Part shown: positions 21,001 through 23,125 of the stretch, piece after piece
Numbering within the stretch: position 1 is the first letter of the stretch
How the letters are laid out: every line of letters starts with the position of its first letter
Origin: a virus
Lineage: Duplodnaviria; Heunggongvirae; Uroviricota; Caudoviricetes
DNA length: 23,125 nucleotides
IMG/VR virus record: IMGVR_UViG_2778261064_000008
Strand: one strand, 5' to 3'
Program-made: the position numbers

Positions 21001-23125
21001 AGCTCCTTTAGTTTCAGAATTCAAATTGTCTTGCCCGCAGGCTTTTCAGCATTGGCATGGCCCGCTGGATAACGGAACTTGACATGTCTAGACGTGTTAC
21101 CTCCCTCAGTAGCGCGTCTCTGTTCTTCGTCACCATGTAGATGGTCTCAAACGCAATGTCATACAGCTTGTTCGTGTATGAGGAGTTCAGCTCTTTCATA
21201 ATGGGATACAGGTGTTTGCTGATGTCCTGGGCTTTTTCCATCCAGAGCTGCATGTAGCAAAGGAGGATGATTTCCTCGGCTGTGAATTGTGGCTGAATCT
21301 GCGGCTGCTGTTCGGTTGGTGCTGTTTTTCCCTGGCTGAAATAGCAGTCTTCCAGTTTTTCGAATACTTCCCACGCCTGATCGGTTTCGAGCATTTTTGC
21401 GTGACGGGCTGCGCCGCGTTCTGTCCAGAGTATGAGCGAGCGGGCTTTCGGGGAAATTTGTAACCCTCTTAAAGATGGTTGCAAATTTTGTGAGTTACTT
21501 AAAGTAACCCGCAAATTTTTCAACTCATCACCAACAACCTTGAAAAAGTGTTTACCCTCAACAAAACGCTCGGAATTACGGGTGTAATTTACTTTGATGT
21601 TGTTGATCTCGGTACAGTAAAGCTGTGCCAGTAACTCGGTAGTGATAACGGGAATTTGGTTGTGTGTAATTGGGGAAAGAGTTTCGACAGAAATCTGAGT
21701 GGCCATAACGATAACTCCGTACATTTGGACATTATCGCCACCGTCAGGTGCTAATCATCGTGGTGGCGAACTGTGCGGGGTTAGCACTACCGGGTACGGA
21801 AACCGGCGAGCCTTTCGGCTCCCCCACACAGCCCGCCATAAATCGCGAATGTGACTGTGCAAACGATATGAAAAAAGACGCGGGCGCGTCTCATATCGCT
21901 CCGTAAACATCCGGGGTGCTAATCCCGACGCCAGATTTTGCTGGCGTGCGAAGAATATAATCCCGGATACGTGACGTTGTCAAACTGATGGCATTGCAGA
22001 TCCCTACACAATGTAATACTATGTGTTATACATTAATAACGGAACAAAAAATGCGCATTTTTAAAAACGCCTGGTTTGAGCGATTTGCACGCAAAAACAA
22101 AATATCCGACCAGTCACTGCGCGAAATTGTTAAACAGGCTGATAACGGGCTTATCTCAGCAAACCTGGGTAACGGCGTTATCAAGCAACGTCTGCCACGA
22201 GTCGGTGGCGGCAAATCTGGCGGTTATCGCACAATCATTTTCTATCGCGTCGGCACAAGGGCCTTTTTCGTATATGCATACGCAAAAAATGAACGTGAAA
22301 ATATAACCGCTACTGAGGAAAGTGCATTTCGGAAGGCGGCTCCTCACGTACTCAATCTAACAGATGAACAACTGGCACAACTGATTCTACAGGGTCAGTT
22401 TACGGAGGTACCCAATGAGTAAAAATTACCGCAGTGATGCGCTTGCATCCGTACATGAAATGATGGAATCGCTTCATGATATCGGCGCAGTAACGAAACA
22501 GACTATGCGAGAATTCGATGAAACTTGTCTCCAGCCAGCGCCGGTAATGTCTCCGGAAAGGATCCGTGCACTGCGCGAACGAGAGCATCTGTCTCAACCT
22601 GTTTTTGCCAGATACCTCAACGTCAGTAAAAACCTGATATCAGACTGGGAACGTGGTGTAAAACGGCCGGGAGGTGCCGCTCTTCGCCTTCTTTCAGTCG
22701 TAGAGAAAAACGGGATACAGGTAATATCATGATACTCCAATACAACAAAACCCGCCGAAGCGGGTTAAGTGCGGGTGCGTTGAGGATGCCTGACACATCA
22801 GAGGTGGCGAGGGATTTCTCCCTCGCCTGGTCTCTTACTCCTCAGGTTCGTAAGCTGTGAAGACAGTGACCTCCGTCTGGCCGGTTCGGATTCGTACCTC
22901 GCAGAGGTCTTTCCTCGTTACCAGTGCCGTCACAATGACGGTAATACAGATGACGATCAGGGCGACTAACATCGCCTTTTGCTGCTTCATAGCCTGCTTC
23001 TCCTTGCCTTTCGGCGCGTAAGAGGCTAACCTACATGTGTCTAGCATAAAATTGGCCTCAGATTAATGTTAGGCGTCTTGCAGGACGCGTAATGTTAACT
23101 GGGGCTTTTCTCTGTCTGCCTTACG

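Follow-up and report, generated by a model that had tools for sequence, protein, structure and literature searches.

Background

The hok/sok locus has been the paradigm of type I toxin-antitoxin systems since the 1980s. The closest studied relative of the locus described here, hokW-mokW-sokW (phage 933W / Sakai Sp5), was demonstrated by experiment to constitute a toxin/antitoxin pair; its antitoxin RNA, sokW, is 71 nucleotides (nt) long, and a 'promoter-less' sokW construct loses antitoxin activity (Takada et al. 2021; PMC8621323). Upon RecA-dependent induction Sok disappears and HokW is made from the native prophage, and the cassette as a whole advances lysis and doubles phage release, its deletion altering both the timing of lysis and the phage yield (PMC8621323). 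In the present study we analyze a stretch of 23,125 nt of Caudoviricetes DNA (IMG/VR record IMGVR_UViG_2778261064_000008; the whole of this stretch is hereafter termed the window), at the end of which the initial annotation had recognized a hok/sok-like type I locus convergent with a type II toxin-antitoxin pair. Both components of that proposal were recovered, the latter as a toxin of Pfam family PF06296 and a helix-turn-helix (HTH) antitoxin on the plus strand. The locus itself very probably represents a canonical and intact type I cassette, hok/mok/sok, that belongs to the hokD/hokW lineage and is carried by a lambdoid prophage in its nin region.

As the window ends inside the hok feature, its flanks were taken from the source genome. 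Over its final 426 bases, from position 22700 onward, the window shows 100% identity with the chromosome of Escherichia coli HCP4S3_I4 (NZ_CM149872.1; locus L001), which supplied the missing 5' 34 nt of the hok mRNA and the hok promoter; the 5' end of the mRNA (the tac element) and the promoter lie beyond base 23125, about 34-70 nt past the window end. A window coordinate equals the L001 coordinate plus 18699, and position p in the hok mRNA equals 23160 minus the window coordinate. For the comparative analysis, 137 related loci were reduced to 96 distinct mRNAs, and 40 diverse ones with 60-96% identity, from Escherichia, Kluyvera, Citrobacter, Photorhabdus, Pantoea, Erwinia and Kalamiella, were aligned. 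Two short contigs, labeled Acinetobacter idrijaensis (L020, 275 bp) and Xanthomonas pisi (L029, 431 bp), encode Hok proteins 93-95% identical to that of the window; these look like E. coli DNA contamination rather than genuine Acinetobacter or Xanthomonas hok genes.

The toxin, the mok frame and the Sok antisense RNA

The elements of the cassette that lie within the window are listed below with their coordinates, strand and basis; SD stands for Shine-Dalgarno sequence, UTR for untranslated region, MFE for minimum free energy, and PGAP for the Prokaryotic Genome Annotation Pipeline.

22740..22766, minus strand: hok intrinsic terminator, a hairpin AACCCGCUUCGGCGGGUU (22749-22766) followed by UUUUGUUGU (22740-22748); from a terminator scan
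22773..22785, minus strand: fbi (fold-back inhibitory) box CCUCAACGCACCC, p375-387; pairs with tac at the mRNA 5' end
22806..22827, minus strand: 3' UTR hairpin GGCGAGGGAGAAAUCCCUCGCC; helix 5 of the comparative test
22835..22990, minus strand: hok coding sequence, 51 amino acids (aa) plus stop, Hok/Gef membrane toxin; Pfam PF01848 and PGAP
22835..23047, minus strand: mok reading frame of 70 aa, sharing its register and stop codon with hok; from the list of open reading frames, with the arrangement as in the annotated mokW of 933W
23000..23005, minus strand: hok SD, AAGGAG, p155-160; GGCAAGG..G is invariant in the 40 homologues
23004..23032, plus strand: sok promoter, with -35 TTGCCT (23004-23009), a 17-nt spacer and -10 TAACCT (23027-23032); hexamers identical to those of sokW
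23022..23059, minus strand: Sok-target (sokT) hairpin of the open conformation; leader-only MFE fold and Rfam consensus structure
23039..23109, plus strand: Sok, 71 nt, antisense; alignment with the annotated sokW (L002 1777-1847) and folding
23101..23105, minus strand: ucb (anti-SD) box, GCCCC, p55-59; MFE folds and the 40 homologues
23110..23125, minus strand: 3' half of the tac stem-loop, p35-50; cut at the window end, with the Rfam match complete in L001

The 51-aa open reading frame (ORF), MKQQKAMLVALIVICITVIVTALVTRKDLCEVRIRTGQTEVTVFTAYEPEE, had been described from the sequence as a near-identical Hok/Gef-family toxin, and this description proved accurate: it matches the Pfam HOK_GEF model (PF01848) with 79.7 bits (cut-off 22; E=1.2e-22) over all 42 model positions, and is identical to K-12 HokD in 48 of 51 residues (94%) and to 933W HokW in 44 (86%). 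In the source genome PGAP names the toxin HokD (WP_052977210.1), while the NCBIfam models, which returned only sub-threshold Hok-family and HokA matches (46.8 bits, cut-off 73), did not help the subfamily assignment. The AUG of the mok frame (23045-23047) lies inside the stem of the Sok-target hairpin, opposite positions 7-9 of the Sok tail, and mok codons 2-4 lie inside the hypervariable RNA segment discussed below. The in-frame position of mok was considered as a potentially unusual trait and rejected as such, being found also in mokW, in an IncF plasmid homologue and in loci annotated as 'MokC'. The hok SD, in turn, overlaps the sok -35 element of the opposite strand.

Sok is predicted to start at G23039 and to end at 23109, after a stem-loop and UUUU. 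Its first 15 nt (23039-23053) form a single-stranded 5' tail, which is followed by a long stem-loop (23054-23106) and the UUUU end; the predicted fold, in which the tail stays unpaired, has a free energy of -31.3 kcal/mol (z=-6.2). The promoter hexamers, the transcription start site and the 3' end are all collinear with their counterparts at the annotated 933W sokW; across genera, the sok -10 retains its TA...T pattern. Judging from primers YO-421/422 (PMC8621323), the -10 element that was mutated in the 'promoter-less' sokW appears to be the same TAACCT hexamer. The initial annotation had expected a Sok-like RNA on the plus strand around 22990..23070; the strand was correct, but the RNA lies about 45 nt further to the right; what the proposed interval contains is the sok promoter together with the first 32 nt of the RNA. 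The locus is thereby predicted to possess a cis-encoded Sok with its own promoter, 5' tail and terminator stem-loop.

Relationship to the described hok loci

The mRNA of the window is 91% identical over 387 nt to that of hokW-mokW-sokW, with a leader of equal length, and the two share a 70-aa in-frame mok, a 71-nt Sok, identical sok -35 and -10 elements, identical tac and fbi boxes, and a lambdoid prophage as carrier. They differ in 7 of the 51 Hok residues, mostly C-terminal, and at 6 positions of the 15-nt Sok tail, which makes cross-recognition doubtful. The sites are also distinct: hokW is located at the right end of the 933W prophage, whereas the cassette of the window lies in the nin region, in the rightward early orientation, beside a RelE/HTH pair. 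In 933W (AF125520; L143, L002), hokW is found on the leftward strand beyond int/attP, and only excision followed by circularization places it downstream of the N-antiterminated pL operon; this might explain the requirement of induction for HokW production reported by Takada et al.

The hok/mok/sok locus of R1 has in common with that of the window the tac, fbi, ucb and dcb elements, mok, a tailed stem-loop Sok and a 3' road-block hairpin, and both are matched by the same covariance model. However, R1 Hok is only about 44% identical to the Hok of the hokD/hokW lineage (a figure given for HokW; PMC8621323), R1 Sok is 64 nt long with an 11-nt tail as against 71 nt with a 15-nt tail, and the carrier is a plasmid rather than a prophage. 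In comparison with the Rfam consensus, the Sok stem of the window has an extension of approximately 16 nt. The chromosomal loci typified by hokC/mokC (gef) display the same architecture, including an in-frame mok (the 'MokC' of PGAP), and the hokC-type loci (L017-L025) align throughout; yet their leader is about 22 nt shorter and lacks the Sok-stem extension, their mRNA identity is about 72%, and they occupy fixed chromosomal sites rather than prophages.

The leader of the locus was also recovered by the Rfam scan that the initial annotation had recommended. Within the window, RF01794 matches 22985..23125 on the minus strand with 71 bits (E=3e-14; gathering score 59) and is flagged as 5'-truncated; in the source genome the match is complete over model positions 1-157, with 115 bits (E=2.4e-27). 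Though named 'sok antitoxin', RF01794 is modeled on the sense strand of the hok mRNA, with 157 positions of which the last are the hok AUG, and it matches the hok-coding strand both here and in the IncF plasmid homologue (L142 518-679, plus strand). Given this orientation, what a match marks is the leader of hok; the gene for Sok is nested within the match, on the opposite strand. A 21-bit match of the same model to the reverse strand, far under the gathering score, was taken as chance. Matches of the 3' UTR to isrK (27.8 bits), rsmX (22 bits) and two CRISPR-DR models, likewise far under their gathering scores, were set aside as chance resemblances of a hairpin plus terminator.

These observations bear on the alternative that the locus is a degenerate or orphan hok like hokD (relF) of the Qin prophage of K-12, that is, an ORF and 3' UTR devoid of leader, mok and sok and expressed solely by read-through. 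The name assigned by PGAP points in this direction, as do the near-identity of the ORF and the 3' UTR (its hairpin, fbi box and terminator) to those of K-12 hokD and the truncation of the RF01794 match within the window alone. The two loci are syntenic: in both, a lambdoid prophage has its hok gene placed between Q and the replication/immunity genes, next to a RelE-type module. That truncation, however, is an artefact of the window end, since the full 157-position leader is present in the source genome. Alignment with hokD (L140, MG1655 1645119-1645872, against L001 4030-4480) revealed that the similarity extends only about 14 nt upstream of the ATG and breaks off at the end of relE; in K-12, relB-relE lies immediately upstream on the same strand, and tac, mok, the sok promoter and Sok are absent. 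At the window locus, by contrast, nothing of the leader is missing: tac, ucb, mok, the sok promoter and Sok can all be identified. Its RelE/HTH pair is unrelated to relBE and lies downstream in convergent orientation. The description of a degenerate orphan thus suits K-12 hokD and not the window locus, for which we consider it extremely improbable.

The hok mRNA and its predicted conformational switch

The hok mRNA is about 417 nt long, beginning with GGGUGCUUGAGG (p1, 34 nt past the window) and ending at about 22743. The region outside the window (L001 4427-4495) holds p1-34, including the tac element GGGUGCUUGAGG, and the hok promoter with a -10 TAGAAT. In all lineages examined the hok -10 lies exactly 6 nt before a GGG start, with the variants TATAAT, TATATT, TAGTAT and TACAAT in other lineages, while the DNA farther upstream is unrelated; this arrangement defines both the start site and the boundary of the cassette. 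On the other side, the homology of the related loci stops directly past the T-run of the terminator. The hok promoter is predicted to be weak, and would drive the transcript of about 417 nt.

The MFE structure of the full mRNA has a free energy of -177.7 kcal/mol (z=-7.8). In this closed structure p1-12 (tac) pair with p375-387 (fbi) in a 12-bp helix with one bulge, and ucb pairs with the mok SD. When about 58 nt were removed in silico from the 3' end, eliminating fbi and the terminator, the predicted MFE structure moved tac from fbi to ucb. The MFE fold of the leader alone is the open structure of Rfam with the target hairpin, in which the mok SD GAGGC (23055-23059, p101-105) pairs with the dcb box GCCUC (23022-23026), and whose 7-nt loop, CUAGACA (23038-23044), opens with a YUNR-type CUAG. 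The predicted folds contain the switch from closed to open as defined for R1 hok.

The initial annotation had called for conserved fold elements of the hok mRNA, and these were found over the 40 homologues. In the closed structure 91.4% of the alignment cells form standard pairs, as against 39-47% in controls slid by 1-3 columns, and 21 pairs have changed on both sides versus a shuffle mean of 11.8 (n=500); none of the 500 shuffles matched the observed values. The tac/fbi helix is paired in 91.9% of cells and includes a compensatory exchange at column pair 4/402, with U4-A in 27 sequences and C4-G in 11, the carriers of the latter being Photorhabdus, Pantoea and E. tracheiphila. Helix 4, formed by ucb and the mok SD, is 93.5% paired with 6 covarying pairs, and helix 5, the 3' UTR hairpin, is 97.3% paired with both sides changed in 5 of its 9 pairs. 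RNAalifold, run without structure input, independently found tac/fbi, ucb/SD and the 3' hairpin. For the open structure, with its tac/ucb and SD/dcb pairings and target hairpin, 86.7% of cells are paired, with 41-51% in slid controls; the SD/dcb pairs do not vary, and compensatory changes maintain the inner target stem over 17 hairpin alleles. Every regulatory pairing was thus shown to be complete, at the level of sequence, and evolutionarily maintained. The hairpins noted earlier downstream of the ORF, and likened to the folded 3' end of hok mRNA, resolve into the 3' UTR hairpin, the fbi box and the terminator; by analogy with R1, the first of these (22806..22827) is likely to act as a road-block to 3' exonucleolytic trimming, and so to set the point at which the active, truncated mRNA ends.

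Taking the R1 and hokW systems as paradigms, the full-length hok mRNA would be stable, untranslated and not bound by Sok. Slow 3' trimming up to the hairpin at 22806-22827 would remove fbi, upon which tac would switch to ucb and the mok SD would enter the SD/dcb hairpin, exposing the Sok-target loop. The short-lived Sok could then dock by its 15-nt single-stranded tail and block the translation of mok and hence of hok, with RNase III cleaving the duplex. Were sok transcription to stop, Sok would decay, mok-hok would be translated and Hok would damage the inner membrane; the trigger could be that the element is lost, that transcription is shut off or that the prophage is induced. The likely biological role, by comparison with hokW-sokW, is prophage addiction and/or assistance of lysis on induction. 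During induction, sense read-through of the early operon across hok, running head-on into the sok promoter, could switch Hok on; in 933W such a geometry exists only in the circularized form.

Several points weigh against the locus being an intact, functioning cassette. The 5' 34 nt and the promoter come from the matching genome record and not from the window. The sok hexamers match the consensus at only 4/6 and 3/6 positions, and a generic promoter and terminator consensus scan, which found the hok terminator, missed both the sok promoter and the Sok terminator. The target stem of the window carries a private C-to-U change that substitutes a G-U for a G-C pair and shifts the hairpin from -9.9 to -7.7 kcal/mol. 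Further, several chromosomal hok loci (hokA, hokB and hokC) are reported to show neither post-segregational killing nor a response to rifampicin, so an intact sequence is no guarantee of activity.

A second alternative is that the locus is complete but a functionally silent passenger remnant, too weakly transcribed or too tightly folded to kill on loss of Sok, like the chromosomal hokA, hokB and hokC studied by Pedersen and Gerdes. The hok -35 is indeed poor (TTTGCG, 3/6). Related DNA occurs in 4,717 of 5,426 complete E. coli genomes, at a median of 2 places per genome and a maximum of 9, which suggests that many copies may be dispensable. Yet hokW-sokW, the closest studied relative, is active in its native prophage (PMC8621323), and R1 hok is toxic without Sok even from a single chromosomal copy. 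The conservation of all the regulatory pairings with compensatory changes also implies ongoing selection. On balance we regard a silent locus as rather unlikely, and favor an intact hok/mok/sok cassette.

Hypervariability of the Sok tail and its target

Related DNA was also detected in 101 phage records, mostly of lambdoid and Shiga toxin (Stx) phages, and the HCP4S3_I4 chromosome itself has four hok-like places. Variation along the cassette was analyzed in 58 distinct mRNAs at least 88% identical to that of the window, a small sample for which kinship was not corrected. The variation is concentrated at p107-121 (window 23039-23053), which is exactly the Sok tail and its target. Here the mean pairwise difference is 0.34, as against 0.02 in the hok coding sequence and 0.02 in the region of the Sok stem, and 10 of 15 sites segregate versus 44 of 372 elsewhere (Fisher p=2e-6). 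The 58 mRNAs carry 13 tail alleles and 17 hairpin alleles. Loci with the hypervariable tail are otherwise about 97% identical, and the target hairpin is kept through compensatory changes. The allele of the window is unique among the sampled sequences and is one nucleotide off a common allele.

Alleles were compared within genomes other than HCP4S3_I4, and co-resident hok copies were found to have differing tail alleles in both E. coli ECMA0423 and S. flexneri SFBU1023. Certain co-resident copies (L045, L054 and L058; E. coli ECMA0423, E. coli ECGI0523 and S. flexneri SFBU1023) have degenerated, their ORFs being frameshifted or cut short or their leader lost as in K-12, so that single genomes harbor both intact and decayed copies.

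The pattern of variation in the tail fits selection for antitoxins without cross-reaction. We tentatively suggest, with somewhat less than even confidence, that the tail and its target (the mok start and the target loop) form a specificity cassette that is kept different among co-resident prophage copies. A literature search, to which subscription papers were mostly inaccessible, found no specific prior account of hypervariability in the Sok tail, and an earlier description is possible.

Genomic context and the question of defence

In the nin region, the replication genes lie to one side of the cassette and Q to the other. The flanking phage genes are all on the minus strand: upstream of hok are O/P-like replication genes and genes for DUF1627, DUF977 and DUF551 proteins, and downstream are two antirepressors, DUF1364, RusA, NinH and Q. 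Thus, hok shares the orientation of the early rightward operon. The type II pair is placed as follows.

22051..22422, plus strand: RelE-family toxin; Pfam PF06296 (E=1.7e-46) and PGAP
22415..22732, plus strand: HTH antitoxin; Pfam HTH_3 (E=1e-7) and PGAP

The pair is convergent with hok, 102 nt separating the stop codons, and the same trio of RelE/HTH and hokD is found in the same place in the prophage of O26:H11 strain 11368; the convergent pair is conserved in prophages of enterohaemorrhagic E. coli. Between the stop of the HTH antitoxin and the hok terminator (22733-22770), the hairpin of the latter is not accompanied by a T-run on the plus strand, and the terminator therefore works one way only. 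Transcripts of the RelE/HTH operon might run antisense into hok, and could form a second antisense layer that stops at the Sok terminator at 23109.

Other features of the neighborhood include two tandem pairs of C4 antisense RNA and isrK on the minus strand (20146-20333 and 21759-21947; 66-78 bits each). Both pairs precede an antirepressor gene, which is of the KilAC type in one case and of the ORF6N/P22AR-C type in the other. These correspond to the duplicated antirepressor switches that had been perceived in the sequence. A full-length STnc100 small RNA (143 bits) is present at 16805-17003 on the minus strand. Past the window end by about 110-215 nt, directly upstream of the hok promoter and on the same strand, is a 34-aa hydrophobic ORF, MSDDISLAMEGALAVIAVVGVYCLVVFLMDRLGN (L001 4537-4641, minus strand), which is annotated as hypothetical and has no NCBIfam match.

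The proximity of the two modules to the antirepressor switches had led the initial annotation to view this end of the window as a defence/accessory hotspot, which raises the alternative that the locus is mainly an anti-phage (abortive infection) module, within a defence island comprising the RelE/HTH pair and the antirepressor switches. Accessory genes are frequent in prophage nin regions, two toxin-antitoxin modules are adjacent both here and in the O26 prophage, and R1 hok/sok on a high-copy plasmid is reported to lower T4 plating. However, PADLOC-DB 2.0 has no family matching Hok or the RelE-like toxin, the antitoxin obtaining generic HTH matches only; a 2026 survey found hok to be enriched in prophages and not near defence systems; and the measured effect of hokW-sokW is to help the release of the phage itself, not defence (PMC8621323). 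We accordingly regard a primarily anti-phage role as very unlikely. 'Accessory/addiction region' is a fair description of this end of the window, with its hok cassette and RelE/HTH pair, whereas its reading as a defence hotspot is not supported.

Conclusions

The locus is already known in kind: as a complete representative of a thoroughly known system, with hokW-sokW as its nearest relative, it is not a discovery. Its discovery value is small, the hokW-sokW lineage having already been tested experimentally and the enrichment of hok in prophages already surveyed. RefSeq annotates only the toxin here, and Sok, mok and the mRNA boundaries complete the annotation. Matches to the 'sok' model RF01794 are to be read as the hok leader, the antitoxin gene belonging on the opposite strand. 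Similarly, the name HokD reflects the protein only, and obscures the difference between the intact module here and the decapitated copy of K-12.

If the tail and target do form a specificity cassette, each Sok would neutralize its own hok alone, and each prophage would stay individually addictive. The hypervariable Sok tail could, in addition, serve as a natural system for studying how the specificity of antisense RNAs diversifies among paralogues.

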